Assembly: GCA_017460585.1 (NCBI GenBank)
Contig: JAFUAR010000373.1
Span: 1-38,914, forward strand
Length of the DNA: 38,914 nucleotides
Direction: 5' to 3'
Source: Clostridia bacterium
GTDB taxonomy: Bacteria > Bacillota > Clostridia > Christensenellales > Aristaeellaceae
Position 1 is the first letter of the stretch. Each line of letters opens with the position of its first letter. Shown one piece after another: positions 1,365 to 38,683 of this stretch. Position numbers and translations under genes: made by a program. The notes below the pieces were generated by a model. The model worked only from the letters and a program-made list of their open reading frames with translations. It was not told the DNA's origin and ran no database searches.

Positions 1365-1661
1365 ATGGGAATGAAATTATTTGTTCAGATGGTCGAACTG
1401 CTTCAGGCTTCCGCGAAGATGAACGAGGCAATGGAGCGCTACAATGAGGCGAAGGAAGCCGTGCAGAAGGCGGCTGAAACGCTGGCAAGCAACTGGGAAG
1501 GCGACGCCCGCGAAGCATTCTGGGCGAATCAGCAGGAAGCCTACGGCTGGTATTCGCAGATTATGCTGGTGGTGCTGGAGATCATCGATCTGGTCAAGAA
1601 GGTCGCGCAGGAATATCGCGACGCGGAAGACCGCATCAAGAGCATTGTTTCCGGTGGCTGA
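1365..1661 (+). CDS. WXG100 / ESAT-6-like protein (98 aa)
   Basis: All-helical small protein with the central motif SNWEGDAREAF (W-x-G) and a C-terminal YRDAE. The ATG follows AAAGGGGAAAG. ORF-track frame 1197..1661 was trimmed to this RBS-supported start. Confidence 0.85.
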   Translation: MGMKLFVQMVELLQASAKMNEAMERYNEAKEAVQKAAETLASNWEGDAREAFWANQQEAYGWYSQIMLVVLEIIDLVKKVAQEYRDAEDRIKSIVSGG

Positions 1662-1697
1662 TAGAATACGAATATAACGTTTAAGGAGGATATAGCA

Positions 1698-2024
1698 ATG
1701 GCAGCGGATAAGATTAAGGTTTCAACTTCAGAGATGCAGACCTGCATTTCCAATTACCAGCAGGCGCGCAGCACGCTGGCGGACGCCTTTAGCGCGCTGG
1801 ATCAGGCCAAGAGCCACATCGACAGCTGCTGGGATGGTCCCGCGAAGACCGTGTACATGATGCGCTGGAACAACATCAACGCGAACCTGCGCCGCACAGA
1901 TAACGTGATTGAGCAGTCCATAAACGGCTTGAACAACATTATCAATACCATGGATAATGCTGAAAACACTATCGGCAGCACCGCCGCTTCATTGGATGTG
2001 GGCACCACGCCGCCGATCTTCTAA
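1698..2024 (+). CDS. WXG100-like small helical protein (108 aa), cassette 1 member A
   Basis: AAGGAGGA lies 7 nt upstream. Central CWDGPAK (W-x-G). Paralog of 3382..3708, sharing I(S)xYQQ near the N-terminus and a G(T)TTPxxF C-terminus. Confidence 0.85.
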   Translation: MAADKIKVSTSEMQTCISNYQQARSTLADAFSALDQAKSHIDSCWDGPAKTVYMMRWNNINANLRRTDNVIEQSINGLNNIINTMDNAENTIGSTAASLDVGTTPPIF

Positions 2025-2055
2025 GCAATACGACTTCCGGGAGGTGTAAGAACCT

Positions 2056-2346
2056 GTGGCGGGAATTTACGATACCGCAAAGCTCCGCGACGCCGCAAGG
2101 CAGGTGCGTCGGGTCGCCGATCATCTGGATGAGGACGCGGTGTTCGGCATGAGGCGCGCCGAAGAGTCCATGGAGGGCTGGAACGGCAAAGCCGCGGACG
2201 CGCTCATGGAGCGGATATTGGAGGAAGCCCGGAGCCTCCGCACCGAGGTACAGCAAATGGCGGATGTTTCCGCAAAGCTCAGGGCGTACGCCGATTTGTT
2301 GGATGAGGCGGACAGCCGACTGGCAGCCCTGATGGGCGGGAGGTGA
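2056..2346 (+). CDS. WXG100-like small helical protein (96 aa), cassette 1 member B
   Basis: GTG start 11 nt after GGGAGG. Contains MEGWNGKAADAL (W-x-G). Paralog of 3753..4043, with the same YD(T/S)..(R)..AA..V start and the same central MEG. Confidence 0.75.
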   Translation: MAGIYDTAKLRDAARQVRRVADHLDEDAVFGMRRAEESMEGWNGKAADALMERILEEARSLRTEVQQMADVSAKLRAYADLLDEADSRLAALMGGR

Positions 2347-2846
2347 TTCGCTTGGATATACGCTGGAGTTCGGAATCGGCGGCGGAGGTGATCCGTTGGC
2401 TGAAGGACACGCAGCAGCGTCTGGGCGATTGCCTGAGCGAGGCGGCGGCGGCGCGAAGCGCCGTAGAGGATGCGAAGCCCTCCGAGGACAGCAGAGCGAT
2501 TGAAATATTGCTGACCCGCTACGACGAAACGGTCGAGCGGATGCGCAAATCGCAGGAAGCGGTCGAGGCGCTCGCCAAGCGCACAGAGGAGGCGCGCCAG
2601 CGCTTTGAGGATGCAGAGAATACCATTTCCCGTATGCTGGAAGCTGTTGCGCAGGAGGCGGAAAGGGACCCAAACGCCGTATACGCCGAAATCGAGTATC
2701 GCAATCCGCCCATACTCACTAGAAGCGCGCAAATTCAGGCGCCCATCATTCTTCCGGAAATGCGCGTTACGCAGAGCGTGATGGTTCCGGATTGGCTGCA
2801 GGCGCTCATGAACGACGACAGCCTGTTTCAGGAATGGAATATCTAA
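2343..2846 (+). CDS. Helical protein resembling the N-terminal targeting domain of the downstream effector, with no toxin domain (167 aa)
   Basis: Shares L.I..W..E.A and ARQRFEDAE / AARRFEDAQ blocks with residues 1-110 of the 4144..5832 product. The start is uncertain. GTG 2343 overlaps the upstream stop, while TTG 2352 is better spaced from GGGAGG (2338-2343). Confidence 0.65.
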   Translation: MIRLDIRWSSESAAEVIRWLKDTQQRLGDCLSEAAAARSAVEDAKPSEDSRAIEILLTRYDETVERMRKSQEAVEALAKRTEEARQRFEDAENTISRMLEAVAQEAERDPNAVYAEIEYRNPPILTRSAQIQAPIILPEMRVTQSVMVPDWLQALMNDDSLFQEWNI

Positions 2847-2870
2847 ACCGAAGATAGGGAGGAAAATACA

Positions 2871-3164
2871 ATGGCAGAATTTCAGGTAACATTGTCCGAT
2901 TTAACCAATGCGGCGAGTAAAATGCGCCAGTATATCGAGGACTTCAAGAACGCGGCAAACGAGCTGAACAGCGCAACTCAAACGCTCACGACCTCCGCCG
3001 ACGGGTGGGACGCCGAGTCCTCTAAGATTTTTGCCGAGAATATTCAGGAAGCGAATAAATGGATGCAGCAGATGGGCGCGGTTGCCGAGCAGTACGCCGC
3101 TACGCTGGATAAGGCGCGCCAGACCTATCAGGAAGCGGACGAAACTTCCGCAAAGAACTTCTAA
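2871..3164 (+). CDS. EsxA-like WXG100 protein (97 aa) with W-x-A in place of W-x-G
   Basis: GGGAGG lies 8 nt upstream. Starts MAEFQVTLSDL, has central ADGWDAESSKIF and a C-terminal YQEAD...SAKNF that recalls the firmicute EsxA C-terminus. Confidence 0.85.
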   Translation: MAEFQVTLSDLTNAASKMRQYIEDFKNAANELNSATQTLTTSADGWDAESSKIFAENIQEANKWMQQMGAVAEQYAATLDKARQTYQEADETSAKNF

Positions 3165-3169
3165 GCGCC

Positions 3170-3367
3170 ATGGATAAGTCCATGGAGGAGCTCCTAAAGG
3201 GCTTGCAGGAAGCGATTGACGATGTGAAGGGGATTCGCCCCGACGAGTCCGAAGCGCCGCAGGAGGCTCAGGTATTTGCAGATCTCACACAGCAGCTGCT
3301 TCGCATGAAGCAGAATTTGGAAAAAATGACGCCGCCCGAGGGCGCGCAGCCGACCAATGAAGAATAA
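3170..3367 (+). CDS. Small acidic hypothetical protein (65 aa)
   Basis: ATG lies 5 nt after the upstream stop, suggesting coupling, with no strong SD. Helical, charged, coding-like composition. Confidence 0.5.
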   Translation: MDKSMEELLKGLQEAIDDVKGIRPDESEAPQEAQVFADLTQQLLRMKQNLEKMTPPEGAQPTNEE

Positions 3368-3381
3368 CGGAGGGAAATAAA

Positions 3382-3708
3382 ATGGCAGAAGGAATTAGAG
3401 TATCAATACCTGCATTGCAGGATGCGATTAGCACCTATCAGCAGAAGCGCGACGAGCTCAAAATGGCCTATATGAGCATTAACGACGAAGTAACCAAGGC
3501 GCACTCTACTTGGACCGGCGACGCCGCCAACAAGTTTGTGGAGCAGTTCGCCCAGATGTACCGCAACCTGTCCGAGACCGATGTGCAGATGGAAGGCGCC
3601 ATTGCCAAGCTGAACAAGGTTATGGAAGAATACGAAGCCGTTGAAAGCCGCACGCGTTCCTTGATGGAGAGCGCTCAGGAAGGCACCACGCCCACCGTAT
3701 TCGGCTAA
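3382..3708 (+). CDS. WXG100-like small helical protein (108 aa), cassette 2 member A
   Basis: GGAGGG lies 7 nt upstream. Contains STWTGDAANKF (W-x-G), YEAVE near the C-terminus, and ends GTTPTVFG. Paralog of 1698..2024. Confidence 0.85.
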   Translation: MAEGIRVSIPALQDAISTYQQKRDELKMAYMSINDEVTKAHSTWTGDAANKFVEQFAQMYRNLSETDVQMEGAIAKLNKVMEEYEAVESRTRSLMESAQEGTTPTVFG

Positions 3709-3752
3709 GAAGAACGCCACTATTGTAAAGCACGAAGGGAGCGACTGCGAGC

Positions 3753-4043
3753 ATGGGCTCTGTAACGACGTATGATTCAACCGCCGTTCGGCGGGCGGCG
3801 CAGACCGTCGCAGGCAGCGCGGAGGTAATATCGACCTCGGCACAGCCGAAGCTGAACCGGATTCGCTCCACGCTGGGGGAAAACATGGAGGGCGATACGG
3901 CGCGCGCGCTTGCGGAAAGACTGCGTCAGGCGGATCAGGACATTGCGCGATTGCAATCCACGCTGGATGCGCTAAGTCGGGCGCTGTACCGATTCGCAGC
4001 GGAGATTGACGCGGCGGACGCGCGCATTAAGAACGCCCTGTAG
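3753..4043 (+). CDS. WXG100-like small helical protein (96 aa), cassette 2 member B (W replaced)
   Basis: GAAGGGAG lies 11 nt upstream. Paralog of 2056..2346, but the W-x-G position reads NMEGDTA. Confidence 0.75.
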   Translation: MGSVTTYDSTAVRRAAQTVAGSAEVISTSAQPKLNRIRSTLGENMEGDTARALAERLRQADQDIARLQSTLDALSRALYRFAAEIDAADARIKNAL

Positions 4044-4050
4044 CCTCCCT

Positions 4051-4094
4051 TTGAAGGGCATCCCCGTGAAAGCACGCGCAGGGATGCCCTTCAA
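4051..4094 (+). promoter_or_regulatory. Intercistronic stem-loop between the helper genes and the effector gene
   Basis: Perfect 14-bp inverted repeat TTGAAGGGCATCCC (4051-4064) / GGGATGCCCTTCAA (4081-4094) with a 16-nt loop. No U-tract follows. Confidence 0.5.
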
Positions 4095-4143
4095 ACGCGG
4101 GAGCGTTCACCGGCGAATTTGGGCAATGGAAGGAGAAACGGCA

Positions 4144-5832
4144 ATGGCGGACAAATTGCATATCACGACCGAGTGGCTGGAGGAAACGGCAACGCAGCTG
4201 AGTGAAGTGCAGCGAGCGCTCAACGACGCCGCGCGCCGTCTAGGCAACGTGACTCTGCGCGACGACGAAGGCGGCGAAATGACCTACCGGCTGAGCGGCA
4301 CCTTCGGCGGAAGGGGCGTGTCCGCCGGTACTGTGCGTCAGGCGATTACCGCGCTGCGCGCGGCGAGCGGAGCAGTGGGCGACGATGCCAACGATATATC
4401 CAAGGCGAGCCGCACCGCCGCGCGTCGTTTTGAAGACGCGCAGCGTGAAATCGAACGGCGGATACAGGAATTGACCGAGGGCATGGCGGCGAGCAACGCC
4501 GCAGGTCGCGGCGCTTCCGGAGCACGGTCGTCGGGAGAAAACAGAACGGGAGCGGACGAAGGCGACAGCACGAGCATACTGAATTGGATCAGCCCGAACG
4601 GGAAGCTTATTGATCCAAGAGCATTTATACTGATTCCGCCCCATGCACCGACCTATCCGTATAAATCAGTACTGATTCCAAGTGATTGGAAAGATGGATT
4701 TGATCCAGATGAGAAACAAACAAAACTAAAAGCGTTGACCATGCTGCTGCACTATCCGGAGGATACCAGCAAATGGACGAAGGAAATGCGCGAGGAATAC
4801 CTGAAAAAGCTCGCTAACACCTACACCTATACGGATGAAAAGGGCAGAACGAGCTACGTATTCGATGATGGCAGCGTGACCATTATGAGCGCAACCGGCG
4901 TGGTTTTGGCAACGACAAGGTACGCTTTTACACCCACCTCGCAAACGATGACGCGTACCGCGAGTGCGGGCGACGGCGGACCGTATACCAAACAGGAGGT
5001 TACGGTGGGTCCTTCTCAGCTCGGGTACCAAAACGACGATATGTTTGGTGTAAAGGATGCTGCGAAGAGCCTAAAAAAAGATATCGGAACACCGACGAAA
5101 AATTATTACCAGAATGGTCAAAAAGTAAAGGAAGTCAAAATGCCGGAACGTAGGGCGACGATTTACGAAACCGGCGTAGACTATTCAGATAGCGTATCTG
5201 TATTGCATACCGAAGGCGTCAGAAAGGATGGCAAGACGACCACCAGCGTAACTGCGGATGTGGGTAAAGCGAGCTTTTCCGCAGGTGGGCACGGCGGGTT
5301 TTATTCCTATAAAATAGATCAGGAGACCGGTCAAGCGAAACGCTATTTTGCTCCCGGAGTCAGCGCGGATGCGGGCGTGAGTATATCCGCGATTGAGGGG
5401 AAGGCAACCAAATCATACAGTGTGAACGATTCTGTGAAAGTAAACGGTGAAATCGGCACCAAGATGATGAGCGGAGGCGTAAAAGCGCAGGGTCAATTTG
5501 GATATGTCAACAAGTCGATTGCCGCCGGCGGCGGTGTGAGCGCAGAAATGAATGTTGCCGAAGTGAATGGAAGCGTTGGCGGCGAGGCATTTGGCGTAGA
5601 AGGCAAGATTGGCGGCAAGGTGACGTTTGGCGTTGGCGGACACGCGAACGTAGGTTATTACGATGGAACGTTTAAAGTCGATATCGGTGTGAGTGCAGGA
5701 ATCGGCGCGGGGGTCAGCATGGAAGTAAATGCTACCAAGCTGATTGATAATATTATTGAAGGTTCTATGAATTCTATGAATAATCTTATTACTTCCGCAC
5801 GAGGTACCGCAAGATCGCTGTTTAATTGGTAA
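4144..5832 (+). CDS. Putative T7SS-exported effector: helical N-terminal domain plus Gly-rich C-terminal domain (562 aa)
   Basis: ATG follows GGAAGGAG (4127-4134); the longer ORF-track start at 4006 overlaps the upstream gene and the hairpin. The first ~140 aa are helical. The C-terminus is rich in G-x-x-x-G-type runs such as AAGGGVSAEMNVAEVNGSVGGEAFGVEGKIGGKVTFGVGGHANVG and DIGVSAGIGAGVSMEV. It lies directly after two small helical partner genes. Confidence 0.7.
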   Translation: MADKLHITTEWLEETATQLSEVQRALNDAARRLGNVTLRDDEGGEMTYRLSGTFGGRGVSAGTVRQAITALRAASGAVGDDANDISKASRTAARRFEDAQREIERRIQELTEGMAASNAAGRGASGARSSGENRTGADEGDSTSILNWISPNGKLIDPRAFILIPPHAPTYPYKSVLIPSDWKDGFDPDEKQTKLKALTMLLHYPEDTSKWTKEMREEYLKKLANTYTYTDEKGRTSYVFDDGSVTIMSATGVVLATTRYAFTPTSQTMTRTASAGDGGPYTKQEVTVGPSQLGYQNDDMFGVKDAAKSLKKDIGTPTKNYYQNGQKVKEVKMPERRATIYETGVDYSDSVSVLHTEGVRKDGKTTTSVTADVGKASFSAGGHGGFYSYKIDQETGQAKRYFAPGVSADAGVSISAIEGKATKSYSVNDSVKVNGEIGTKMMSGGVKAQGQFGYVNKSIAAGGGVSAEMNVAEVNGSVGGEAFGVEGKIGGKVTFGVGGHANVGYYDGTFKVDIGVSAGIGAGVSMEVNATKLIDNIIEGSMNSMNNLITSARGTARSLFNW

Positions 5833-5835
5833 GCT

Positions 5836-6270
5836 ATGGAAAATACGCAGTGGATACTTCGCTGTGCGCTATGTCTGATGTCGGTGGTGTTTATCGTAAT
5901 CGGCATTGTACTGCTGGCGGGCAGAGATAATAGCGGACGAGGCTTTAAACGAACAAAAGCGCGAATTGTGGGCAGAACGACAGGTAAGGCGATTCACAGC
6001 GTTTGCCTATTTGTGGAATTTGAGGCGGATGGGCGGCTGGAGCGTCACAACTGCGCTGAATTTTCGGACGCGGATTTTGCATTGAATACTGGCGATGAGT
6101 TGGATATTTTCTATCGGCATGATTTGGTCGCGGGTGTAGATACGTGGACGGTGATTGCGGATAACGGAAGAAATGAATTGACCGCAAGAGTACGTGCTCG
6201 AACGATTTATGGAATATTGATGCTGATCATTGCACTGCTCATTTTAGTACTGACATTTCAATGGTTTTGA
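5836..6270 (+). CDS. Two-TM membrane protein, DUF3592-like architecture; candidate immunity protein (144 aa)
   Basis: ATG lies 3 nt after the effector stop. N-terminal TM is LCLMSVVFIVIGIVLLAG and C-terminal TM is IYGILMLIIALLILVLTF, with a beta-rich middle between them. Confidence 0.6.
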   Translation: MENTQWILRCALCLMSVVFIVIGIVLLAGRDNSGRGFKRTKARIVGRTTGKAIHSVCLFVEFEADGRLERHNCAEFSDADFALNTGDELDIFYRHDLVAGVDTWTVIADNGRNELTARVRARTIYGILMLIIALLILVLTFQWF

Positions 6271-6306
6271 TGTATAATGGATACAGTTTGATAGGAGGAA
6301 TTGGTT

Positions 6307-6606
6307 ATGACGATTACAGGACTGCTTCCGATCGGTTCCGTGGTACTGCTGAAGGACAGCACCAAGCGCGTGATGATTACGGGCGTATGTCAGGAAGGGA
6401 CTACGGAAAATGGCACCAAGCTGTATGATTATGTCGGCTGCGCGTTTCCGGAGGGATATTTGAGCGCGGATCAGAATTATCTGTTCAATAACGCGCAGAT
6501 TGATAGACTGTACGCCATTGGTTATCAGGATGAGGAATCGCTGCTGTTCAAAGAGCGTGTAGACGAGCTCATTGTTCAGCTTCGCGCGGAGCGCGGCGAA
6601 GAGTAA
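6307..6606 (+). CDS. DUF4176 family protein (T7SSb-associated)
   Basis: GGAGGA lies 8 nt upstream of ATG 6307. LLPIGSVVLLKDSTKRVMITG...YDYVGCAFPEGY...LFNNAQIDRLYAIGYQDEE matches the DUF4176 pattern found in firmicute T7SS loci. Confidence 0.85.
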   Translation: MTITGLLPIGSVVLLKDSTKRVMITGVCQEGTTENGTKLYDYVGCAFPEGYLSADQNYLFNNAQIDRLYAIGYQDEESLLFKERVDELIVQLRAERGEE

Positions 6607-6948: not shown

Positions 6949-7425
6949 CTACAATTCTCCTTCCCGCTCGGCGAGCGTTTGAAGCAGCGTCGCCATTGGC
7001 GGGTCGGGTTCCACAATATGACCGGATAAGTCCTTGTGATTGAGCGCATCCTGCAGCGCGCGGCGCGCGGCTGCCGCATCGCGTATCGGAGTGAGCGTAA
7101 TTGCGCCGGATTTGGGAAACTCTCCCAGCACGAACAGTGCGCTTCCGCGCCAGAGCACCACGGTGCGATCCGCGGCGCGGGCGGTCACGTGGTAGCGGCA
7201 ATGGGCGGCGTTGCTCAATAGCAGCGCGTTCAGGCGATTTACGCCGTAGCCCTCTCCAGCGGATAGCACGATGCCCGCCTCAATCAACTCCTCTGCCGCG
7301 TTTTGCGCCAGCGCCTCCGTGAGCTCCGGTAGCGGCGCGTCCGGCGGGTTGGGCAGGCGCAATATCGCCAGCAGCGTGGCGAGCTCAATGGGTTCATAGC
7401 GATAGCCGATGCTTTCCGCGTTCAT
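6949..7425 (-). CDS. Hypothetical soluble protein (158 aa), translationally coupled to the LytTR gene
   Basis: Its ATG overlaps the upstream stop (ATGA). No TM segment and no recognisable motif. Confidence 0.6.
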   Translation of the reverse strand: MNAESIGYRYEPIELATLLAILRLPNPPDAPLPELTEALAQNAAEELIEAGIVLSAGEGYGVNRLNALLLSNAAHCRYHVTARAADRTVVLWRGSALFVLGEFPKSGAITLTPIRDAAAARRALQDALNHKDLSGHIVEPDPPMATLLQTLAEREGEL

Positions 7426-8168
7426 GCGCCGTTCCCCCTTTGCGTCATTTGTTGCCTGAGTCCGTCGCGGCTCGAACGCGATATGGGCAGGCGTTCGCCG
7501 CTCTCCAGCGTGAGTTCCATCGCGCTGAAATCCGTTTCCCGAATGCGCTGTACGTTCACCACATAGGAGCGGTGGCAGCGGTAGAACTGTTCCGGCAGGT
7601 CGCCTAGCAGCGTGCTCAGCGTGGCGCGCACGGTGATAGTCTGCCTGCGAGTGTAGATATTCAGCTTTTTATCCAGCGCCTCGATATATCGAATTTGATC
7701 GAACGGTATGCGGTGGGTGGTGGCGCCTACGTTGAGCAGCAGCGTGCCCTGCGGCGCCTGCTCGGAGTTGAGGGCATCGTAATCCAAAACGATGCGGGTG
7801 AGGCATTCCTCCATTTGCGCCTGTGGAAAGGGCGTGAGCAGTATACCCGCGGGGCGCGAGCAGACGCCCAGCACCGCGCCGAGATCATCCAAATCGTGAA
7901 TCAGGTACACGGTATAGCTATCGCGGCTGCGGCGCATCAACGCTTCTCCCAGCTGCAGGCACTTTTCCCGATTATTTTTGGGGCGAAGCGTGCAGCCGAA
8001 TATGGCGAGCACAATGCCGGTTTCCGCTTGTAGATAGCGCTCCATGTCGTCTACGGAGGAGGTCGTTGCCGCGATTTTGAGCGCAAAACGCTCGGACAGC
8101 GCTTCCAGCTGAGCGAGAAGCATTGCCCGAATGCGTTCGTTGGGCTCGCAAATCATCACAGAGAGCAT
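7422..8168 (-). CDS. LytTR-family DNA-binding protein with a degenerate (pseudo-)receiver domain (248 aa)
   Basis: C-terminal THRIPFDQIRYIEALDKKLNIYT...FYRCHRSYVVNVQRIRE is a typical LytTR pattern. The N-terminal receiver-like fold has EP in place of the acidic pair (VMICEPNE), no Asp at the phospho-acceptor position (IVLAIFGC) and T in place of the conserved Lys (LLTPF). GGGAGG RBS present. Confidence 0.8.
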   Translation of the reverse strand: MLSVMICEPNERIRAMLLAQLEALSERFALKIAATTSSVDDMERYLQAETGIVLAIFGCTLRPKNNREKCLQLGEALMRRSRDSYTVYLIHDLDDLGAVLGVCSRPAGILLTPFPQAQMEECLTRIVLDYDALNSEQAPQGTLLLNVGATTHRIPFDQIRYIEALDKKLNIYTRRQTITVRATLSTLLGDLPEQFYRCHRSYVVNVQRIRETDFSAMELTLESGERLPISRSSRDGLRQQMTQRGNGA

Positions 8169-8201: not shown

Positions 8202-11200
8202 TTACTCTTCTTCCGCGTCCGTGAGCGGCACGCGAATTTGCGTCACCTTGCCGTCGGCGAGCATATAGCCGTAGCCGCTCGGCAGCGCCTTGCTGCGGGA
8301 TTGCAGGGGCAGACCCGCGCCGATGCCCAGCGGGTCGTTTTCGTTGAATTTACCGCCCAGCGCGATGCCGCGCTGCTGCGCAATGAGCGATTTGAGCGGT
8401 TCGGACCGTTCTTGCATACGCTCCGCCGAAGACATGGCGATAAATAGGAACAGGTTGTATAGGTCGCCCTTGCCCGCCATTTGCCCAAATACATCGCAGA
8501 TGTAATTCTTTGCGGGAACATTGCGGTTGGGATCCTGCCCCGGGGCGAGCTCCGCCGCGGTCTTGACCTGCGGTACCGGTTCGCCCGCTTCCTGCGCGGC
8601 GGGGGCCGCCGCTTCCGATTCCTTTGCCAGCATCACGGGGCTCTTGACAAAGCGCGGCGCGTTGAAATCGCGCGGCAGGCGCTCGGCGTTATCAATCAAT
8701 ATGACGCACGGCTTGAATTCCAGCGCCTGCTTGCGCGCCGCCGCCTTGCCCTGCGCCAGCGCCGCTTCACGCTTTGCTCTGCGCTTGCCAGGATATTCGC
8801 GCACGAACATATCCATGAATATGGCGATTTCGTCCTCGGTTGCATACAGGTGGGCGCCAAGCTCGTCCGCTAAGGTTTTCCAGTTCGCATCGCCGATAAT
8901 ATGAATATCCGCTCCGCGCTCGGCGAACAGTCGCGCAGTCAGCTTGAGGAAGTTGGTCAACCCGCTCTTCTTGGGACCGGTGACGTACATGGAATAGTTC
9001 TTCTCCAAATCCAGCGTTGCCAGACTGCCCTTGGTCATATCGTAACCGATGGGCAGCTGATAGGGGCTGCGCTGCGCATCCGTAAAGCCGTCGACCACGC
9101 GGAACTGCTCCAAGGTGGGTTCTTCCGGAATTCTGGGAATTCTTGCGGGGCGAGCGCCCTTCCAAGCTTCGTCCATCGCCTTGGCTTCGGCAATGATGCG
9201 CGCGCTGCGCTCTACGTCGGTCAAGCCTTCAAACGGCGGGAAAGCCGCGTTCAGGCAGTAGGGTTCAATATCGTTCAAGTCGGCAAACGGCGCGTCGGGT
9301 GCGTCAATGCTCACGCCGCCCAGCGCAATTTGCAGCTCGTAGGGCACGTTGTCTTCTCCCACCAAACCGAGCGCGCGACCCGGGGTCGCCATGAGCGGCG
9401 GCATATCGTAGGGTACGCGTTTGCCGAGTACGTCCGTGTAGTCCGCGCGTTCGCGCAGCTGCAGCGCGATGCCGCTAAAGAAGGAGTGCAGGCGCCCGGG
9501 AATTTCGTTCTTCGCCAGCGCGGTAACAATGAAATGAATGCCGCGCCCGCTGCCCTCGCGCAAGAGCTGTTGAATGCGCGCGGTGTAAAAATCGTCATTG
9601 GCGAACATATTCTTGAGCTGCTCGTAGCGATCTACAAATACCACGATCGCCGGAACGCCCTTTTTGTTTTCCAAACGGCAGGCGCGGTTGTATTCAATGA
9701 AGCTATCCGTGGAGACCTGCGCGAACATATCGCTTCTGCGCTGCTCCTCCTCGAAGAGCATATTGATAAAGCGCTTGATCTCAATCACATCCTGCTCAAA
9801 GGCGATATCGCCCACCTGCGGGAACGCGATGAGGTTGCCCAGCGTCTGGCTGGTCAGGCTCAGTATGTACATTTGCACGTGTTCCGCATCGTACTGGCTG
9901 GCGATGGCGGTTACGATGGATTGCACGGCGGTGGTCTTTCCCGTGCCCGCCAGACCCACGATCATTAAATTGCGCATCTGGGTCAGGTTCACGGTAAAGG
10001 GAATATAGCGCTGCTGCGCTACGTCGTCCGCCATGCCCAGCAGGAACTGAACGCCTTCCGGCGCGTTGGCGTAGTCATTGCCGCGGCGGAAAAGCGCCTG
10101 CGCCATGGGCATATGACCGAAGTAGAGCTGGGAAGTGAGCTGCGGAAGCCACATTTGCTTGGTATGCAGCAGATCGTGTTCGCCGGCGACCTCGCGAATG
10201 CGCTCCAGCACGGCGTCCATTTGAGTTTTTTCCTTGCGTTTTTCTTCTACGCTCTTGCGCTTTTTCGCCACGCGGATGGCTTCGCCGGTATCGCCCAACA
10301 GGTGCGGCATTTCCTCCGCCCTCGGTTCGTTGGGGTTGTAGGCGAGTCCGGAATAGCTGGTTTGCACCTGCTCGAACAGCTCGTCGTTGCCGATTTGAAT
10401 GAAGCAGCGCCCCATGCCCTTGATGTAGGCCGCGTCGGGTCGCTTGAGCATTTCCATGGAATCGCTGCGGGTCTGCACGCGCAGGCACAGGTGGAAGCGG
10501 GAGTTCGCCCATATTTCATCGCTGACGGAGTTGGAAGGCTTCTGGGTAGCCAATATCAGGTGGACGCCCAGCGAACGACCTACGCGCGACGCGCTGACCA
10601 GCTCGCGCATGAAATCCGGCTGGTCGCTCTTGAGCTCGGCGAATTCGTCAACAATAATAATGAGGTGCGGCAGCTTCGGTTCGGCGGGATCGCTTCCAAA
10701 GAGCTGCGTGTAGTCGTTGATGCTGCTCACATCGTGCGCCTTAAATATGCGCTCGCGGCGATGGATTTCGCCGTTGAGCGAAGCCAGCGCGCGGTTGATC
10801 ACCAGCTCGCCCTGCAGGTTATCGATAATGCCAGCCACATGGGGCAGCGTGCGGAAGGCGTCCGCCATGCCGCCGCCCTTGTAGTCGATCAGTATAAACT
10901 GCACCTGATCGGGGCTGTAGTTGAGCGCCAGAGAGAGAATATAGGTTTGCAGCATGACCGATTTGCCCGAACCTGTAGTGCCCGCGATGAGCCCGTGAGG
11001 TCCGTGGTATTTATCGGAAATATCCAGTATGAAGGGCTGGGAGCCCGCGGCGTAGCCTATGGTGGAGCGCAGTCCGTCGTAGGTGTGGTTTTCCGTCCAC
11101 ATACGCCACACATCCAGATCTTCGGTGCGGCGCACGCCGTAGATATCGAGGAACGATACCAGCGAGGGGATCGCGGCGTTCTCCGCCGCGTCGCGCACGC

Positions 11201-14945: not shown

Positions 14946-15006
14946 GGAAAAGACCCCTTCGTATAAAAAAGGTAAGAATATGGCGTTATTAAGGTATATC
15001 AGGCGT

Positions 15007-15035
15007 ATTATAGCATAAAAACAATTAACACACAA
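15007..15035 (-). promoter_or_regulatory. Candidate sigma-A promoter of the FHA-essC operon
   Basis: Minus strand reads TTGTGT (15035-15030), a 17-nt spacer, then TGc-TATAAT (extended -10; TATAAT at 15012-15007). This is about 60 nt upstream of ATG 14945. Confidence 0.55.
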
Positions 15036-15038
15036 CGT

Positions 15039-15051
15039 AAAAAAAAAAAAA
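15039..15051. repeat. A13 / T13 homopolymer between the divergent promoters
   Basis: Thirteen consecutive A residues on the plus strand, immediately upstream of the minus-strand -35 element. Confidence 0.9.
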
Positions 15052-15076
15052 CCATAAAGTAAACAAAATAATCGGC

Positions 15077-19108: not shown

Positions 19109-19148
19109 AGCATTGAAGGTTAATCGGCAATCATCATAGCAATGGGCG

Positions 19149-26460: not shown

Positions 26461-26540
26461 CGTTTGATCGAAGCATGGAAAGCCGGGGTGGCATCGCTCC
26501 GGCTTTCTATGGAAAATGTACATCGATGGGGGAAACGGGT

Positions 26541-29500: not shown

Positions 29501-30605
29501 CGAACCCATTCGCGTAGTCGCTAAAGAAGGAGACATTAAGGACTTTGCATTGACTGCCAACGGCAATTCCATAGTAAGCGGAGCGTTCATTCAGTACGAT
29601 GGCGGTCCCATCGCCTTTACGGGCACTCCCAATCCGGAAGGAAGGCTAACCGTGGAAGTGACGAAGGACGGTGCGCAGATCGAAGTATCGGAGCAAACCG
29701 GCGCGTTTGCGCTGGAAAACGCCGAAGACGGCGAATATAGCGTAATGGCGAGGCTCGCGGACTACCAGAATATCCACTCGGAGCCGATCATATTCACCAT
29801 AGACAACACCAAGCCCGTCGTTCAATGCGCCTCCGATATTTCCGACCTCGCGGCGCAGCTCGAGCTTTCCGCCGATGAAGACAGTAAATTCAAAGTGGAA
29901 ATTGATGGAGCGCTCGCGTATGAGAGCGAAGACTTCGAAAACGGAGCGATCGTATCGATCGATTGGGAGAAAGACGTACTTTGGCAGGCGAAGGAGATCG
30001 CCATTATTGCAATGGATCGCGCGGGCAATATTTCCGAAACGAAGAAAGTCGCAATTACGCCCACGGACGCGTACAGAGTATGGCTCGATACCGCGCCGGA
30101 ACGCGTGGAGCAGGGGCAGATGATTACCGTAACGGGTACGCTAGCCTACCGAGGCGCGGATCGACCGACGGTGCAGGCGCAGCTGCTCTCCGCGGAGGAT
30201 AAACCGCTTCGGGACAGCAAGGGCGGCGAGCTTCAACCTGTAGAAGTAGAGTGGGGCGAGGAAGCGCCGGTTAACGAGGCGTCTATTGAAGGAATGCGCG
30301 CCGACCATTTGCAGAAGTTTTCCGCCGCGTTCCGCGCGGAGGACTATCCGAGGGGCGAAGCGAAGGTGCGATTGATCGTGAAAGAGGCGCAGGAGCTCAC
30401 CGATCGGAGCGTGCAAATCGATCTGAACAGCGGAAAGCGCACGCGTTATATCGCCATAATCGCCGCGCTGGGCGTTGCGCTGATCGTAGTGCTGATCGCT
30501 TTGGCAATCGTCAGCAAAAAGATTTCCGCGCTCAAGGACGCGGAGATCGATCGCCGCAGCCGCGCGAGTAACCTGACCATCCGACAGAAGGGCGGTCGCC
30601 CGTAA
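26541..30605 (+). CDS. Large surface protein with signal peptide, repeat-rich ectodomain, C-terminal TM and a 27-aa cytoplasmic tail (1354 aa)
   Basis: Start trimmed to MRYGLKGLGILLLAVLLVCAPALGEE (GGGGGA RBS). TM YIAIIAALGVALIVVLIALAIV, then tail SKKISALKDAEIDRRSRASNLTIRQKGGRP. Visibly lower GC than neighbouring genes. Confidence 0.8.
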   Translation: MRYGLKGLGILLLAVLLVCAPALGEEAAPTSVPLASVIGNIEAPVPVKPHYALYDWSAVCELSEELSQDAPIECDFSQDIRFVFNDIPKEFGIEIEIDGQQREQLESREYTLAVGSIPTDNVVVAVYLAASEWSEPKPIWRGTLQSGGEIKDIHLYLLYTLQNDTVLEEKEPVIDGRIPVSAEAEQESVELSVWLAKGLQLEGPLAINSGSDGNYTVVWNKNNLFFSLYSNEGYGDQDRKWVEHRYALVEDGEDKISSESTIAPSDEFTDEPSASPEPQDTSAIVDTASPSPAPTPIPVALEIYLKGKENAIQLMPSMDQRVISGIYALEIRTSSDIDWTQVNVLVSGVPATIEEIDGSRIVELTVEHHSATEIQVFYQAKPQGTYSLKGYQPIRITNKEEVTEEYRQGSKSADISFTIDDGYLNGNKDVDIRIEEGLEGDFLVPKTLDNMTLIDSGNYSYTLNIPERVEGIYTFSIRYVASREYVEPREQLEGIEDASSIHLTVDTKAPQCIGVQINDTEIDKLNEALKAEVYANTKQAEVSVTFDESVELYVNGEKQAGEAKAKWNISVDIPQDGAPVRISAKDGFGNETKAPVEIGFDIIDPIGNVTLMDQSSGETLGGELLEGKKDISLHIEGSKGHTPEGSYHFDDEPEETIKPVRSSIGEGWDVFIPLEGVSNACKTLTLTLAGEDTPYKWIIDLEPPEAQVQSITAEEGGKSTYSAQKNALTWLSGEALSVTLDNPKGDVERVELNNAPIWVREQGGIEKESSSQIEFTLDAERVNGAESIVFDLFDEYNNSSNTKPISVRAFVPAPIEIALEEDEQQVAFGGTKALELNGSAESGWALIAKLGEAEGISIAVDENGEWTQTFEPEQYPESETTLTLSYENGLGETKDIDVTIDQTCEIDFPESVTEGDDFIELEALEDGVTVIVKLNSEVVSRFAEGEAGEVLLTAEGKNKVEITQSAKLGDEYLIQAIDQYGNEKTTDEPIRVVAKEGDIKDFALTANGNSIVSGAFIQYDGGPIAFTGTPNPEGRLTVEVTKDGAQIEVSEQTGAFALENAEDGEYSVMARLADYQNIHSEPIIFTIDNTKPVVQCASDISDLAAQLELSADEDSKFKVEIDGALAYESEDFENGAIVSIDWEKDVLWQAKEIAIIAMDRAGNISETKKVAITPTDAYRVWLDTAPERVEQGQMITVTGTLAYRGADRPTVQAQLLSAEDKPLRDSKGGELQPVEVEWGEEAPVNEASIEGMRADHLQKFSAAFRAEDYPRGEAKVRLIVKEAQELTDRSVQIDLNSGKRTRYIAIIAALGVALIVVLIALAIVSKKISALKDAEIDRRSRASNLTIRQKGGRP

Positions 30606-30626: not shown

Positions 30627-31580
30627 ATGGGTCTGAAAATAGATACCGCCGTATACAGCCATATCGGGCGGCGCAAGAATAACGAGGATAATTTCTTTTT
30701 GGACGGGCTCTATATGGAGCGCGACCAAATGAACAAGGGCGGTCAATACCACGCCGTGAAGAAGGGCGACGAGCAGATCTACGCCGTTTGCGACGGTATG
30801 GGCGGCGCGGAGTTCGGCGAGGAGGCCTCTTTGCGCGCGGTGCAGCGCCTGAAGGAATACAAAGAAAAGTGCCGTCAGCCGGACAACACGGGCAATCTCA
30901 ACCAAATGATTGACGAGGCGTCCCGCTGGATTGACGATATTTCTCTCGCCAAGGGTATGGAGTCCGGCTCGTCCGGCTCTACCATCGCCATGCTCATTAT
31001 GAAGGATTGGTATTTCCGCACGGTGAACGTGGGCGATAGCCGCGTATATCGCCTGCGCGGGGGCTTGCTGGAGCGCATGACCAAGGATGATTCCGAGGTA
31101 CAGCAAATGGTGGATCGCGGCGAGATTACTTTGGATCAGGCTTGGCAGCATCCGCGCAAGAACGTGATCACCCGCCACTTGGGTATGCCCATGGAAGGGG
31201 AGGCGTTGATGCCTTCGGTATCCATGCGCTTGGATTTGAACCAAGGCGACCGCTTTCTGATCTGTTCGGATGGTTTGAGCGATTCGCTGCACGATTCTGT
31301 CATTCGCAGAATTCTTACCGAACAGCATACCCCGCAGGCAACCGCGGCGCAGCTGGTGCGCACGGCGCTTTCGGAAGCGGACAACATGGGCGTGGCATCG
31401 GATAATATTACCGTAATTGTACTGGATGTGCTGGAGGCGGGCGGACAGGATGCGGATGTGAAGCGCATTCGCAAGCTTTCCGCGGCGCGCGCGGGTTTGG
31501 CGGCGGCGAGCGTGCTGCTGGCGGGCGGAATCGGGTACGAGGTATTCCAGCTCATTCAATTTCTGAATAGTTCCTATTGA
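30627..31580 (+). CDS. PP2C (PPM) Ser/Thr phosphatase with C-terminal membrane anchor (317 aa)
   Basis: Motifs GRRKNNEDNF, AVCDGMGGAEFGEEAS, GSTIAM, VNVGDSRVY, ICSDGL and DNITVIVLDV. C-terminal hydrophobic segment GLAAASVLLAGGIGYEVFQLIQFL. GGGGGAG RBS present. Confidence 0.9.
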   Translation: MGLKIDTAVYSHIGRRKNNEDNFFLDGLYMERDQMNKGGQYHAVKKGDEQIYAVCDGMGGAEFGEEASLRAVQRLKEYKEKCRQPDNTGNLNQMIDEASRWIDDISLAKGMESGSSGSTIAMLIMKDWYFRTVNVGDSRVYRLRGGLLERMTKDDSEVQQMVDRGEITLDQAWQHPRKNVITRHLGMPMEGEALMPSVSMRLDLNQGDRFLICSDGLSDSLHDSVIRRILTEQHTPQATAAQLVRTALSEADNMGVASDNITVIVLDVLEAGGQDADVKRIRKLSAARAGLAAASVLLAGGIGYEVFQLIQFLNSSY

Positions 31581-37600: not shown

Positions 37601-38683
37601 CCTACGCCCATTCCCACGCAAGCGCCTACTCCGATGCCGACTGAGGCGCCCACGCCGGAGCCTACGGCGGTACCCACGCCCGTGCCTACGGAGCAGCCTA
37701 CGCAGGTTCCTTTCACGGAAGCGCCTGCGCCGACGAGCGTGCCGTTGGCGCCCCAGTCCGATCTGGACGGCGCAATTGAGATCATCAACAACTTCCTGCC
37801 GGTGGGCTCCGATTTGGATATTGTAGGTCAATATAGCGGAGACGTTCGCCAAAAGGAACTCACGCTGTATGCGCAAGATATCGGCAAGGAACTGCTGCCG
37901 AGCAGCGTTGAATGGAATGGGAATAGCTTCCACATGACTGTGAAGACGGTTGGTCTGCCGGAGGGAATGCATTCCGTCTATTTGGCGGCGTATGATTGGG
38001 GTACGGATAGCTATACGCAGCTTTCCAATACGCAGCCGTTCTCGCTGTATCCGGAAAACGTTACCTCCGAACCCACGGCTTCCCCCGTACCTACGCCCAT
38101 TCCCATCCAAAAGGATGTGCCCGATGCCGAAGCGTACGTGCTGGGCGGTTTTGTGAACGGCATGGAAATCGATCCGTTTGCCGCGGGCGTAGACGTGCCG
38201 GAGAATACCGCGTTCCGACCGGATCAGCTGTTGCTGACCATGTGGATTTATAAATCCTACGATTTTGCGCCCTCCATCGGCGATATTACGGTGCTGGATG
38301 CAAATGACAACGCGGTCGCGCATATCCCAATGGATGTGGAGCAGGATACTAAAAATTATAATCCTGCAATCGTTCAGCCCAATATAGCCTTTAGAACCTA
38401 TCGCAATACGCAGGGCTTGAATTATGAAAGCCTGAATAAAGTGCGGGATAAGGTGACGAATGAAAACGATGTTGAGGCGGGCATGATTCTTTGGCTCGAT
38501 CTCACGCAGGCGAACGCAAACCTGCCGGACGGCAAGTATACGCTGCGTATCAATGTACATGTGTCGGGCGAGCCGGTATATGTGGACGCTCCGGTACAGC
38601 TGGTGGGCGTATGGCCCGAGCGCGATATGCGGGCGGATATTCAACAGATCGTGAACGAATGGGAGAGCGAACAACCGGAATAA
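31610..38683 (+). CDS. Giant Hanks-type Ser/Thr protein kinase: cytoplasmic kinase domain, one TM and a ~2000-aa ectodomain (2357 aa)
   Basis: Motifs LGRGNSGVVYRV (Gly loop), AALKVIP (Lys), HLDIKPDN (catalytic loop, non-RD; Asp codon 32126-32128), VGDFGVS and GTRDYMAPE. TM LPIVIGTAAVGLVSIIAFILWQML (about 32615-32686). The ectodomain has about 8 A-B module pairs, a PT linker and a ~310-aa terminal domain, with no PASTA repeats. AAGGAG RBS present. Confidence 0.92.
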   Translation: MENLEQRIRQYEPFFGRWKLNDPPEILGRGNSGVVYRVHDPENAADAALKVIPIPRDEGVLEQWRRECGGNESMVRAMIDQEYRYAQTEIDIMHRLKSDSNIVCFEDAKIYKRSDTYGYDVVIRMERLIRLDSFFQNPGKYGYGHNMETYLIIWMHLTRGLAFCERSGIVHLDIKPDNIFYAEPSRDAFKVGDFGVSIRSDNGKSVGVGMVVGTRDYMAPEVYRGEGGDIRSDIYSLGVVMYSLFNGDRLPFLPAHGRVSEEDNNVARDQRLSGKEVPPIKGMDPLLSEILLKCLRYRPQDRYQSMETLNNDITRYYYMWLDEGGKRGGAGGSSRTLPIVIGTAAVGLVSIIAFILWQMLHSGSGSVEQEQPTATPMDENTARPTELLPEPTAQEETSAPTALLESTDTPELTEAPTPAPTLMLNPDFVSAGEQGVVVMNADNRNDPITLYGAAGSSLMGAWMFEGQLVKSEFVEFDERGEATITVPYSQDGEYTLRCGYDGANASEYETFTFRIDTVAPELTFLHVPYAEVGNQTLEVQTDPYARVRVFDEAGNPIVETTDADEYGRANISIVEPLESDATYFVRAQDSAGNASASFSASIPPVMLSLAHPVSMGDTEIEILTDAHNDITVTNGEQYMVTPIGDDDGDGAVLWSLDAPAGFGDTYYISAITPDGRVHMISAQVETWRRIELEEINRAEAEHSRSIQVNGVAQPNQEVVLTWKGTAVEAARRRADGEGAFSIELNPEDCGVDPSGDVGAIGAVYAGAEGEAATAAEPIEDVQWSPEANASIPAAVGEGDLELRIIAPEAERVTVNGSEAGLEHEEGSSEYYYRPEGGAFDPDVEYVVSVRDAAGYEKTQSVVVDMLERVPIQMALGQGYLSEGKRFIGEKMTVRAEASPGREIEIAWIDHKDDSILLWTGEADENGNIRAQIDAGIVFGNSGDNVYLKSGTIRVAYAGSVAQDNAAKLSIRWYLRPVLTIRPNTVTETTEQLIVSANTGATVSAYINGTLVVNDDALDAYDTAKILLEEIKAGDEIVVRVELVDDEGNVLSRESEPMVVQEVERQPITLQTDEEARGDQLRGTFSAEPGCAVALYWNGEWISSFEAEEGDTRFFVMEEEIGDFVETEGWLSARYADGKAESAASEGTYVHWISRTELELLTDDVTEDDSTIIVHTGKDAHVNVVIGNTDLGEREADDSGNFVWNLEELGVRLRVGDRIEYTAYDDYGNSATITDTVQASSREEIRATIKNLQGGMIVGGAAKLSGSASPNYELQAYWNDMPVGGIIRTDSQGDFSAVLSENEIQGGGTLYLRYADGLGNSRQFSVPITGLVGELEEARLEEPIYEDAEQLAVHTASGAQVDFYLNGRLMGSATANGDGVAVYDLAGQALSADDRIYAIASDGYTKKRGDQVLVQPEERMPIDITVRAVSSEGRVYDESMLVIVWAQMNKGIEVLWNDVPIEWTQTSVYNENNVAIRIDMPQNFEQGWGTLTVRYADGKGEAAVQDVDWRLNVELPVSIDTLSEDSATLTVHGPVGAVVRLEDANGAFVADGLLRALDSTGEGMWKYPTAQGFTEGEVYRAIVTDGEGNEGSATARVEASQLAFIEARVGGGDFLLPIEINAEPNSEVVLRVNGAVNAVASIGGDGSANIALAPNGAMVNHTQTVSISVEYADNVARSRATEVVQEWTPLLTVRLSSEEIPAEKHQIEVFAPVVDGVAVFGELGGEVRQASYSRGNGAYLLDLGDEVSAGETVTIWAEYDGAESERVEAHIARRSIAAIITGKELNTPTVELMGYAQRNSSIQVAAQFEGVAPEETAVYVQLENSDTFQTSLDLAFVPLRSGDYPFTLVARYEGESEWLEVGSASYVLHADLPEEPVLLTAPITADDAGVVYAVSDDVRYARLFLNGVPESSIELTEGTTTAQFDVELREGDEIEVLLYNEAGWYIVSEPVWVGAAATPAPTDTPILTPEPTAIPTLEPTAVPTPIPTAVPTPIPTAVPTPIPTQAPTPMPTEAPTPEPTAVPTPVPTEQPTQVPFTEAPAPTSVPLAPQSDLDGAIEIINNFLPVGSDLDIVGQYSGDVRQKELTLYAQDIGKELLPSSVEWNGNSFHMTVKTVGLPEGMHSVYLAAYDWGTDSYTQLSNTQPFSLYPENVTSEPTASPVPTPIPIQKDVPDAEAYVLGGFVNGMEIDPFAAGVDVPENTAFRPDQLLLTMWIYKSYDFAPSIGDITVLDANDNAVAHIPMDVEQDTKNYNPAIVQPNIAFRTYRNTQGLNYESLNKVRDKVTNENDVEAGMILWLDLTQANANLPDGKYTLRINVHVSGEPVYVDAPVQLVGVWPERDMRADIQQIVNEWESEQPE
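37544..37615 (+). repeat. Three tandem 24-nt repeats encoding (TAVPTPIP)n within the kinase distal PT linker
   Basis: acagcggtacctacgccgattccc (37544-37567), acggcggtacctacgccgattcct (37568-37591) and acggcagtacctacgcccattccc (37592-37615). Confidence 0.85.

Follow-up and report, generated by a model that had tools for sequence, protein, structure and literature searches.

Introduction

In the b-type type VII secretion system (T7SSb), known from Ess in Staphylococcus aureus and from Yuk/Yue in Bacillus subtilis, a dimer of the pseudokinase EssB/YukC sits on the tip of the second FHA domain (FHA2) of EssC, as seen in the B. subtilis structure (PMC12637312). T7SSb EssC proteins have lost the GR, SxxH and NG residues that bind phospho-threonine (pThr) (PMC11217815), and their FHA domains bind the EssB pseudokinase independently of phosphorylation (PMC11217815; PMC12637312). 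How a T7SSb-like machine is switched, and what role the EssC FHA domains play, is an open question. In this work we analysed a stretch of 38,914 nucleotides from a Clostridia bacterium (contig JAFUAR010000373.1 of assembly GCA_017460585.1, here called the window) that bears on this question. It encodes a type VII secretion system (T7SS) that provides a natural comparison: the FHA2 tip keeps its pThr pocket, the pseudokinase is gone, and an active-looking kinase, a PP2C phosphatase and FHA receptors are co-inherited with the essC gene.

Kinase-linked T7SSs have been described before. A survey of RefSeq (Garrett, Higginson & Palmer, Microlife 2024; PMC11217815) described eight T7SS subtypes, T7SSc to T7SSj, and reported membrane kinases (TsxD) with EssB-like topology and intact active sites, PPM phosphatases (TsxF), Ig-like envelope proteins (TsxI) and FHA proteins (TsxJ) with DUF6382, a domain that is the hallmark of TseJ, TsfJ and TsjJ. 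In the same survey a pThr motif is conserved in TsdC, TseC and TsjC, phospho-regulation is proposed for T7SSd, T7SSe and T7SSj, and an analogy is drawn with threonine phosphorylation in type VI secretion systems (T6SS) (PMC11217815). No further T7SS subtype is named in the later literature that we searched. A bioRxiv preprint of September 2026 describes the Esr systems of Schaalia, made of a surface Ig/beta-propeller sensor, MoxR, a vWA protein, an FHA protein, a kinase and a phosphatase; Esr responds to epibionts, and the response requires that a threonine be phosphorylated in the disordered stretch upstream of EsrG1's FHA domain (PMC13622651). Esr1 acts transcriptionally through a phosphorylated FHA protein, the Esx-linked Esr2 exerts post-translational control on the secretion of a subset of Esx substrates, and Esr is reported as essentially confined to Actinomycetes (PMC13622651).

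The idea that a T7SS can be controlled in this way is already published, with experimental support in Actinomycetes. A preliminary description of the window had presented the wiring of a T7SS to a kinase, a PP2C phosphatase and FHA proteins as not known to be described for T7SSb; this is not supported, as the wiring and the T6SS analogy are in PMC11217815 and experimental Esr control is in PMC13622651. The novelty of the window is a variant and no new principle. This variant would extend the T7SS catalogue to uncultured gut and rumen Clostridia missed by the RefSeq-based survey.

EssC keeps phospho-threonine-binding residues in FHA2, and EssB, EssA and EsaA are missing from the window

The best explanation of the gene content is that the window carries a complete T7SS locus of a variant that is neither a nor b, from uncultured gut or rumen Clostridia resembling Oscillospirales. 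The window has about 57% G+C and three transcription units (features are listed in Table 1). A minus-strand unit running from 14945 to 6671 encodes two membrane FHA proteins, EssC, a LytTR regulator, a protein of 158 amino acids (aa) and a YukD-like protein. It is convergent with a plus-strand unit (1365-6606) that contains WXG100-like genes and encodes a 167-aa helical protein, a putative effector with its putative immunity protein, and a DUF4176 protein. The third unit, a plus-strand operon of 23.5 kb (15173-38683), encodes an MBG surface protein, an RCC1 protein, two FHA receptors, an Ig-like protein, PP2C and the kinase.

EssC matches PF01580 (FtsK_SpoIIIE) with E=1.5e-55 and has an additional FHA match. 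The AlphaFold (AF2) model of its N-terminus, made with 53 homologues, has a predicted local distance difference test score (pLDDT) of 91 and consists of two beta-sandwich domains, that is, a tandem FHA fold, whose best Foldseek matches (5FWH, 9QKS, with chain 9QKS_H, and 1WV3, over about 217 columns) are tandem FHA structures of EssC/YukB. This N-terminus, its fold close to 5FWH and 9QKS, and a TIGR03928 score above the cut-off are shared with T7SSb, and so are DUF4176, WXG100 proteins and a cassette with an LXG-like effector; the YukD-like protein is a candidate further likeness. In contrast with T7SSb, FHA2 keeps the GR, SxxH and NG residues and is, judged by these residues, pThr-competent; across 53 family members there is no variation at G115, and conservation of R116 is at least 90%.

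The window also differs from T7SSb by the absence of EssB/YukC, EssA/YueC and EsaA/YueB. As first noted from the letters alone, no open reading frame (ORF) of the window matches YukC/EssB, EssA or EsaA in Pfam and NCBIfam searches, and no gene called in the related loci bears such a label. Because T7SSb is defined by these three proteins, the name 'T7SSb-type' used in the preliminary description is not apt. The sole kinase-fold protein of the window has the topology of EssB and, unlike the EssB pseudokinase, intact catalytic motifs.

Kinase, phosphatase and FHA genes are kept beside essC

The window proteins were mapped onto 22 loci (designated by L numbers), the presence of the kinase/PP2C/FHA module being called where enough DNA flanks essC. 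The EssC homologues are 39-71% identical and all come from metagenomes or metagenome-assembled genomes (MAGs), of goat, buffalo, rabbit, bird and human samples, with the labels Clostridia, Oscillospiraceae, Lawsonibacter, Candidatus Faecivicinus and Ca. Ornithocaccomicrobium; an EssC scan of genome contigs gave seven loci, all in MAGs. In 10/10 informative loci (the window, L001 and L017 on one contig, L003, L008, L010, L013, L015, L020, L021 and L022) essC has a Hanks kinase, a PP2C and a vWA/Ig-TM-FHA gene as neighbours, across EssC proteins 40-64% identical and at least five gene orders. In four other loci, L006, L007, L009 and L011, the available DNA stops at a contig end or at the 10-kb limit set on flanks.

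The whole architecture of the window is repeated on the 70.6-kb contig that carries L001 and L017, and the string of genes for the transmembrane (TM) FHA protein, membrane FHA protein, EssC, LytTR, 158-aa protein and YukD is kept in closer relatives. Elsewhere the same genes are arranged differently: as a compact divergent operon of kinase, PP2C and vWA-FHA genes in L008 and L020, with PP2C and kinase directly upstream of essC in L003, L010 and L022 (L010 having a second set downstream), as one co-directional operon of kinase, RCC1, PP2C, FHA and essC in L013, and with the module downstream of essC in L015 and L021. The reverse test, starting from PP2C orthologues, recovered the same operon (L017-L019), and at least 12 clusters of PP2C orthologues share the size of their longest contig with a cluster of EssC orthologues; this test covered PP2C-seeded loci, and genomes with the module and without essC may still exist. 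Since the kinase, PP2C and FHA genes adjoin essC despite the shuffling of gene order, this conserved neighbourhood is strong evidence for functional coupling. The tie of the kinase, PP2C, FHA and vWA genes to this essC lineage, at first a proposal for which a neighbourhood survey was advised, is borne out by all ten informative loci.

Two compact forms of this T7SS variant lie next to genes of mobile elements, a resolvase/recombinase and MobA_MobL in L003 (1-4938), and relaxase, NikA and DnaB-like genes in L013 (20764-23281). Because of these neighbours, some copies of the locus may travel on integrative or mobilisable elements.

Kinase, phosphatase and membrane FHA proteins

The kinase has an Ig-like ectodomain of about 2000 aa. 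Glycine loop, catalytic Lys, αC Glu and the HxD...N, DFG and APE motifs are all intact in its cytoplasmic domain and in 8-9 orthologues. The usual Asp-containing motifs are present in PP2C, which has more than 100 orthologues at 44-69% identity. Both enzymes thus look catalytically competent from their motifs, in line with the active-looking 2357-aa kinase and membrane PP2C of the preliminary description, except that the anchor of PP2C is a C-terminal tail only moderately hydrophobic, below the hydropathy threshold for a membrane anchor.

Among relatives, kinase ectodomains differ widely (Ig arrays, LRR with Big_2, SLH), as expected of a diversifying sensor. The closest clade has a non-RD kinase, with HLD. 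HLD is the reading in the window, L017, L008 and L003, and HRD (RD) that in L013, L015, L019 and one L010 kinase; the second kinase of L010 has CRD and L018 has HAD.

The two membrane FHA proteins announced upstream of essC were found, with PF00498 matches and hydrophobic segments (13151-13732 and 13782-14945). The 417-aa protein has orthologues in eight loci, and the window copy keeps GR and SxxH. The divergent operon indeed encodes two further proteins with a signal peptide, an ectodomain, a TM segment and, at the C-terminus, an FHA domain. The FHA domains of both receptors are canonical (GR/SxxH), and the vWA domain of the first has an intact DxSxS motif. Orthologues of this vWA-FHA receptor were found in L007, L008, L010, L013, L015 and L017-L020; a homologue search with the receptor itself gave three matches, low-complexity words having dominated it. 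Over Big_6, TM, linker and FHA the second FHA receptor is similar to the vWA-FHA receptor's C-terminal two-thirds, and because L017, L018 and L019 each have a single gene of this kind, this likeness suggests a recent partial duplication.

Threonine motifs in the receptor linkers

Four GT[VT]R[IL] motifs are found within the 249 linker residues that lie just upstream of the receptor FHA domains. The remaining ~11,950 residues contain four looser T[VITQ]R[ILV] matches, one of them preceded by Gly, and none of 20,000 shuffles reached four. Two to four similar repeats are present in the receptor orthologues of L007 and L008, within linkers that are otherwise unalignable. FHA domains prefer pT-x-x-I/L, and the linker motifs fit this preference. 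The GT[V/T]R[I/L] motifs are likely phosphorylation sites, predicted to be targets of the kinase and docking sites for FHA domains. A GTTVL pair lies at a comparable place upstream of the FHA domain of TseJ (Fig S4 of PMC11217815). Another candidate docking site, SRTLPI in the juxtamembrane region of the kinase, was rejected as it sits at the start of the TM helix.

A LytTR protein without phospho-acceptor and a 158-aa protein

In the window, as in 10/10 orthologues (L001, L003, L006-L012 and L015), the receiver-like domain of the LytTR protein is without the phospho-acceptor Asp, with Gly or Ala in the column of AgrA D59, and no histidine kinase gene is present near the LytTR gene. For these two reasons we regard this protein as a conserved pseudo-receiver regulator, and as a candidate transcriptional output. 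No convincing repeated LytTR-type operator was found upstream of the WXG genes or in the divergent promoter. The 158-aa protein, encoded between LytTR and YukD, is syntenic in L001, L006-L011 and L021 and has 39 representatives among 1.84 billion clusters. Its best match in a PDB profile search has E=0.17, and its single-sequence AF2 model (pLDDT 47) is unusable.

Placement among T7SS subtypes

Ten TsxC reference sequences, one per subtype, were rebuilt from text of Fig S2 (PMC11217815) read by optical character recognition (OCR), and are partial, with OCR errors. The window EssC is 29-37% identical to the Bacillota-type references; TsiC, TsfC, TseC and TsjC score best, with similar BLAST scores at 29-35% identity and TsiC giving the top bit score. 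Within its own clade EssC identity is at least 39-40%. In a neighbour-joining (NJ) tree of 908 columns with 200 bootstraps, this clade is monophyletic (100%) and outside all nine non-EccC references, away from TsjC, and TseC pairs with TsdC (95.5%); the tree is only indicative because the references are partial, OCR-derived and one per subtype. All relatives are GenBank MAG records, outside the RefSeq-only survey; they carry no RefSeq WP numbers by which they could be matched to Supplementary Data 5, a list free of organism names.

The window resembles T7SSe and T7SSj (and the actinobacterial T7SSd) by the GR/SxxH/NG residues of the EssC FHA domain, a membrane Ser/Thr kinase whose active site is intact, a PPM/PP2C phosphatase, separate FHA proteins, a large Sec-exported Ig-like protein with a C-terminal TM segment, a YukD-like protein, multiple WXG100 proteins and the lack of EssB, EssA and EsaA. 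It differs from them in its FHA proteins, which are membrane proteins without DUF6382, two of them with large extracellular vWA/Ig regions, and in the kinase ectodomain, a ~2000-aa Ig-like array in place of a helical or TPR one. No DUF6382 was detected at E<=5 among the small FHA proteins or at E<=0.01 among all ORFs, and no gene of the related loci has this label; the 193-aa FHA protein is only 27% identical to the TM and FHA part of TsfJ. The LytTR pseudo-receiver, the RCC1 propeller protein and the 158-aa protein are additional to T7SSe and T7SSj; no obvious counterpart of TseK (one TM, zinc-ribbon-like) or TseH (one TM) was noticed in the window, no search having been aimed at them. With T7SSi (Vallitalea) the window shares a LytTR-family regulator in the cluster (TsiN), but T7SSi has a ParA-like TsiM, an EspG-like TsiG and poor pThr motifs in TsiC, and no PPM, Hanks kinase or FHA proteins; no ParA/MinD-like or EspG-like ORF was found among the window ORFs. 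No published subtype includes the vWA/Ig-TM-FHA receptors, the RCC1 propeller, the 158-aa protein or the LytTR pseudo-receiver. Because of the NJ placement, the lack of DUF6382, TsiM and TsiG, and these extra genes, the locus is probably an additional, so far unnamed T7SS subtype.

Like Esr, the locus associates surface proteins of the Ig-repeat and beta-propeller sensor type, a vWA domain, an FHA output protein, a Ser/Thr kinase and a phosphatase with T7SS genes, and its predicted phosphorylation sites lie, as the phosphorylated threonine of Esr does, in a disordered region upstream of an FHA domain. However, Esr needs MoxR and the transglutaminase EsrD, for which the window has no Pfam match, and here, unlike in Esr, the vWA domain is extracellular and joined through a TM segment to FHA, and the RCC1 propeller is on a small anchored protein of its own. 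The vocabulary of Hanks kinase, PP2C, FHA and vWA is also that of the H1-T6SS of Pseudomonas aeruginosa (PpkA/PppA/Fha1) and of the Agrobacterium tumefaciens T6SS. The logic that would be shared, in which a surface cue leads by way of threonine phosphorylation and FHA docking to a secretion ATPase complex being activated, is an analogy only: the T6SS is an unrelated secretion machine, PpkA has its vWA domain on the kinase whereas in the window it is on the FHA receptor, and the window has no T6SS core genes, only weak domain-level TagH FHA matches.

A model for the control of EssC, and alternative explanations

We favour, with a little more confidence than doubt, a model in which the phospho-threonine module gates the EssC complex. 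Gene content, catalytic and binding motifs, co-inheritance and motif recurrence were observed; from them we infer every phosphorylation and binding step that follows. The kinase ectodomain would sense a surface cue, perhaps helped by the surface proteins with vWA, RCC1-propeller and Ig-like domains; contact with another cell and envelope damage are candidate cues. The kinase would then phosphorylate the threonines of the GT[V/T]R[I/L] motifs in the disordered linkers of the FHA receptors, and the resulting pThr-x-x-I/L sites would be bound by FHA domains, including FHA2 at the EssC tip and those of the two small membrane FHA proteins. Such docking would replace the phospho-independent contact between the EssB pseudokinase and FHA2 of T7SSb, and would nucleate or open the EssC complex, leading to export of the WXG100 partners and the toxin. 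PP2C would reset the system, and the LytTR pseudo-receiver protein would probably be its transcriptional arm. Testable predictions follow from this model, on the threonines that receive phosphate and on the FHA domains that read them.

Several observations weigh against this model. The absence of essB, esaA and essA concerns the 39-kb window, and copies may be present elsewhere in the genome. Around the essC of L012, no kinase or PP2C is seen over 8 kb on the upstream side and 5 kb on the downstream side. The 193-aa FHA protein of the window has GQ in place of GR, which is found in 7/7 orthologues, and as Gln here replaces the phosphate-binding Arg this copy may bind pThr poorly; in several orthologues of the 417-aa FHA protein the Asn of NG is missing. 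The linkers of L010 and L015 carry other T-x-x-L repeats instead of GT[VT]R[IL], and therefore the exact site is not universal. The small FHA proteins and EssC lack motifs of this type. Finally, all relatives are MAGs.

The module could instead act on transcription only, sensing a surface cue and altering the expression of T7SS and toxin genes through LytTR or another factor and leaving the machine untouched. A LytTR protein lacking the phospho-acceptor Asp is encoded directly downstream of essC in most loci, with no histidine kinase, and precedents exist in Esr1 of Schaalia, which is transcriptional via a phosphorylated FHA protein (PMC13622651), and in the IreK-dependent transcriptional activation of T7SSb in Enterococcus, cited in the discussion of PMC11217815. 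We nevertheless consider this unlikely: L013 and L020 keep the kinase, PP2C and FHA genes with no LytTR gene beside essC, the promoter regions have no repeated LytTR-type operator, and assembly at the membrane fits better than gene control because FHA2 of EssC is pThr-competent by its residues and four FHA proteins are membrane-embedded. Another view is that the FHA and Ig-like proteins and the kinase are a phospho-independent scaffold that replaces EssB, EsaA and EssA, the kinase and PP2C activities serving envelope homeostasis or the like, or being vestigial. Such a scaffold would be in keeping with the phosphorylation-free binding of T7SSb FHA domains to the EssB pseudokinase (PMC11217815; PMC12637312), with the EssB topology of the kinase, with the loss of the Arg of the 193-aa FHA protein and of the Asn of several 417-aa orthologues, and with the proposal that the TsxI-like Ig protein is an EsaA-like conduit (PMC11217815). 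It is less probable still, as the catalytic residues of the kinase, the metal-binding motifs of PP2C and the GR/SxxH residues of the EssC FHA2 and receptor FHA domains persist across orthologues that are 40-70% divergent, which points to selection on catalysis and pThr binding, and as the conserved pT-x-x-I/L repeats are hard to account for otherwise. That the two divergent operons are neighbours by chance, the second being an unrelated surface adhesion or signalling system, is very improbable; their divergent transcription and the MBG, Ig and RCC1 surface proteins, which have no known T7SS role, would agree with it, but the association persists through rearrangement in ten loci, in some of them within co-directional operons (L013, L021 and L022) or with kinase and PP2C genes directly upstream of essC (L003 and L010).

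Gating of EssC by the module is a separate matter from classification, and the locus could belong to T7SSe, T7SSj or T7SSi as a divergent member instead of forming a subtype of its own. TsxA, B, C, D (the kinase), F (the PPM phosphatase) and I are shared with T7SSe and T7SSj, and LytTR with T7SSi; TsiC, TsfC, TseC and TsjC give similar BLAST scores at 29-35% identity, and each subtype is represented by a single OCR-rebuilt sequence. This seems doubtful to us, since DUF6382 is found neither in the window nor in the related loci, TsiM and TsiG are lacking, the clade has 100% bootstrap and lies outside the nine references of the NJ tree, and the relatives, all of them MAG records, had no part in the RefSeq-only survey. 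A bolder proposal, which we make tentatively and do not hold as probable, combines the two questions: the locus would be an eleventh T7SS subtype in which vWA/Ig receptors with their own pThr docking repeats and FHA domains turn ligand binding, via the kinase and PP2C, into recruitment of the EssC FHA2, that is, a switchable replacement of EssB and a Bacillota counterpart of Esr, assembled independently without MoxR or transglutaminase.

Other features of the window

Nearly all items of the island in the preliminary description were found where it placed them, one of the small corrections being that the WXG100-like genes are six and not five. Four of these six small ORFs are above the PF06013 (WXG100) cut-off of 27.3 bits and two are just under it. 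The bounds given for the island also hold, as the 5' part of glnA, the gene of a type I glutamine synthetase, crosses the left edge on the minus strand and a hairpin (38702-38727) follows the kinase stop codon on the right.

Table 1. Features of the window, in order of position.
Feature	Position	Strand	Evidence and remarks
WXG100-like protein a, WEG motif	1365-1661	+	PF06013 31.8 bits; start as in the preliminary description
WXG100-like protein b	1698-2024	+	PF06013 38.5 bits
WXG100-like protein c	2056-2346	+	PF06013 26.8 bits, just under cut-off
167-aa helical protein	2343-2846	+	No significant family match; kept in L008 and L010
WXG100/EspC-like protein d	2871-3164	+	PF06013 27.9 bits; PF10824 28.9 bits
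WXG100-like protein e	3382-3708	+	PF06013 41.9 bits
WXG100-like protein f	3753-4043	+	PF06013 26.5 bits, just under cut-off
Putative secreted effector, 563 aa	4144-5832	+	Helical EspC/LXG-like N-terminus; glycine-rich C-terminal domain
Putative immunity protein, 144 aa, 2-TM	5836-6270	+	Two hydrophobic helices; directly 3' of effector gene
DUF4176 protein	6301-6606	+	PF13780 E=2.2e-27
YukD/EsaB-like ubiquitin-fold protein, 83 aa	6671-6922	-	PF08817 E=5e-4, 21 bits, under gathering score 27
158-aa conserved protein, subtype-specific	6949-7425	-	No Pfam or NCBIfam match
LytTR DNA-binding regulator, pseudo-receiver N-terminal domain	7422-8168	-	PF04397 E=1.7e-24
EssC-family T7SS ATPase, 1632 aa	8202-13100	-	TIGR03928 964 bits; NCBI curated cut-off 778
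EssC FHA2 domain	12576-12767	-	GR / SxxH / NG phospho-threonine-binding residues
Membrane FHA protein, 193 aa	13151-13732	-	Two adjacent hydrophobic segments; C-terminal FHA, PF00498 E=1.4e-15
Bitopic FHA protein, 417 aa	13782-14945	-	Extracellular PG_binding-like region, TM, cytoplasmic FHA; PF00498 E=1.5e-13, weak PG_binding_1
Divergent promoter region, essC operon and sensor/kinase operon	14946-15172 (227 bp)		Two back-to-back sigma-70-like sites, 0.4 expected
Large secreted/anchored surface protein, MBG_2 domains	15173-19108	+	PF18676; N-terminal signal/anchor
Anchored extracellular RCC1 beta-propeller protein	19142-20257	+	RCC1_2 E=5e-20; TM helix 41-59
Receptor-like vWA-FHA protein	20306-23386	+	Signal peptide, extracellular vWA, Big_6, TM, disordered linker, cytoplasmic FHA
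Two GTVRI motifs (pT+3 = Ile), cytoplasmic linker of vWA-FHA receptor	23003-23059	+	
Second receptor-like FHA protein	23446-26460	+	Signal peptide, Big_6/Ig ectodomain, TM, linker, FHA
GTTRI and GTVRL motifs, cytoplasmic linker of second FHA receptor	26080-26151	+	
Ig-like envelope protein, 1376 aa, TsxI-like	26475-30605	+	Signal peptide; weak Big_13, Big_7 and Calycin_like matches
PP2C/PPM phosphatase, hydrophobic C-terminal tail	30627-31580	+	PP2C_2 E=3.8e-13; Stp1/IreP model E=5.8e-48
Hanks-type Ser/Thr kinase, 2357 aa	31610-38683	+	Pkinase E=2.8e-32, Big_6; cytoplasmic domain, one TM at 339-357
Terminator-like hairpin, 10-bp stem	38702-38727		3' of kinase stop, closes operon; z = -2.95

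The 167-aa helical protein is possibly a Lap-like targeting partner. The putative effector has a weak PF10824 match (E=3.4e-4) and no NCBIfam match, and its C-terminal region is 30-31% identical in L001 and L003; a weak homologue of the 144-aa 2-TM protein occupies the same position in L001 and L007. An effector/immunity pair is a plausible reading of these two genes. The assignment of the 83-aa protein to YukD/EsaB is tentative: the window copy is below the Pfam cut-off and has no NCBIfam match, orthologues (35-80% identity) occupy the same position in all loci, and copies of relatives are labelled PF08817. In the 23.5-kb operon, homologues of the MBG_2 surface protein head the operon in L001, L018 and L019, orthologues of the RCC1 propeller are present in L001/L017, L007, L013 and L019, and the TM helices of the 1376-aa Ig-like protein span residues 27-45 and 1328-1346.

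Several starts in the raw ORF list are over-extended, the true starts being at about 14945, 15173 and 4144. Antisense ORFs of great length, reaching 1320 aa (15407-19369 and 20555-23221 on the minus strand, 10113-13085 on the plus strand), were rejected as genes; they overlap true genes and are shadow ORFs of the kind common in GC-rich coding DNA. No tRNA gene was found in the window and an Rfam scan of the whole window gave no matches, including for a perfect 14-bp inverted repeat at 998-1035, in the leader upstream of glnA (minus strand). A run of 13 A residues at 15040-15052 lies within the divergent promoter region, and this tract could be slippage-prone.

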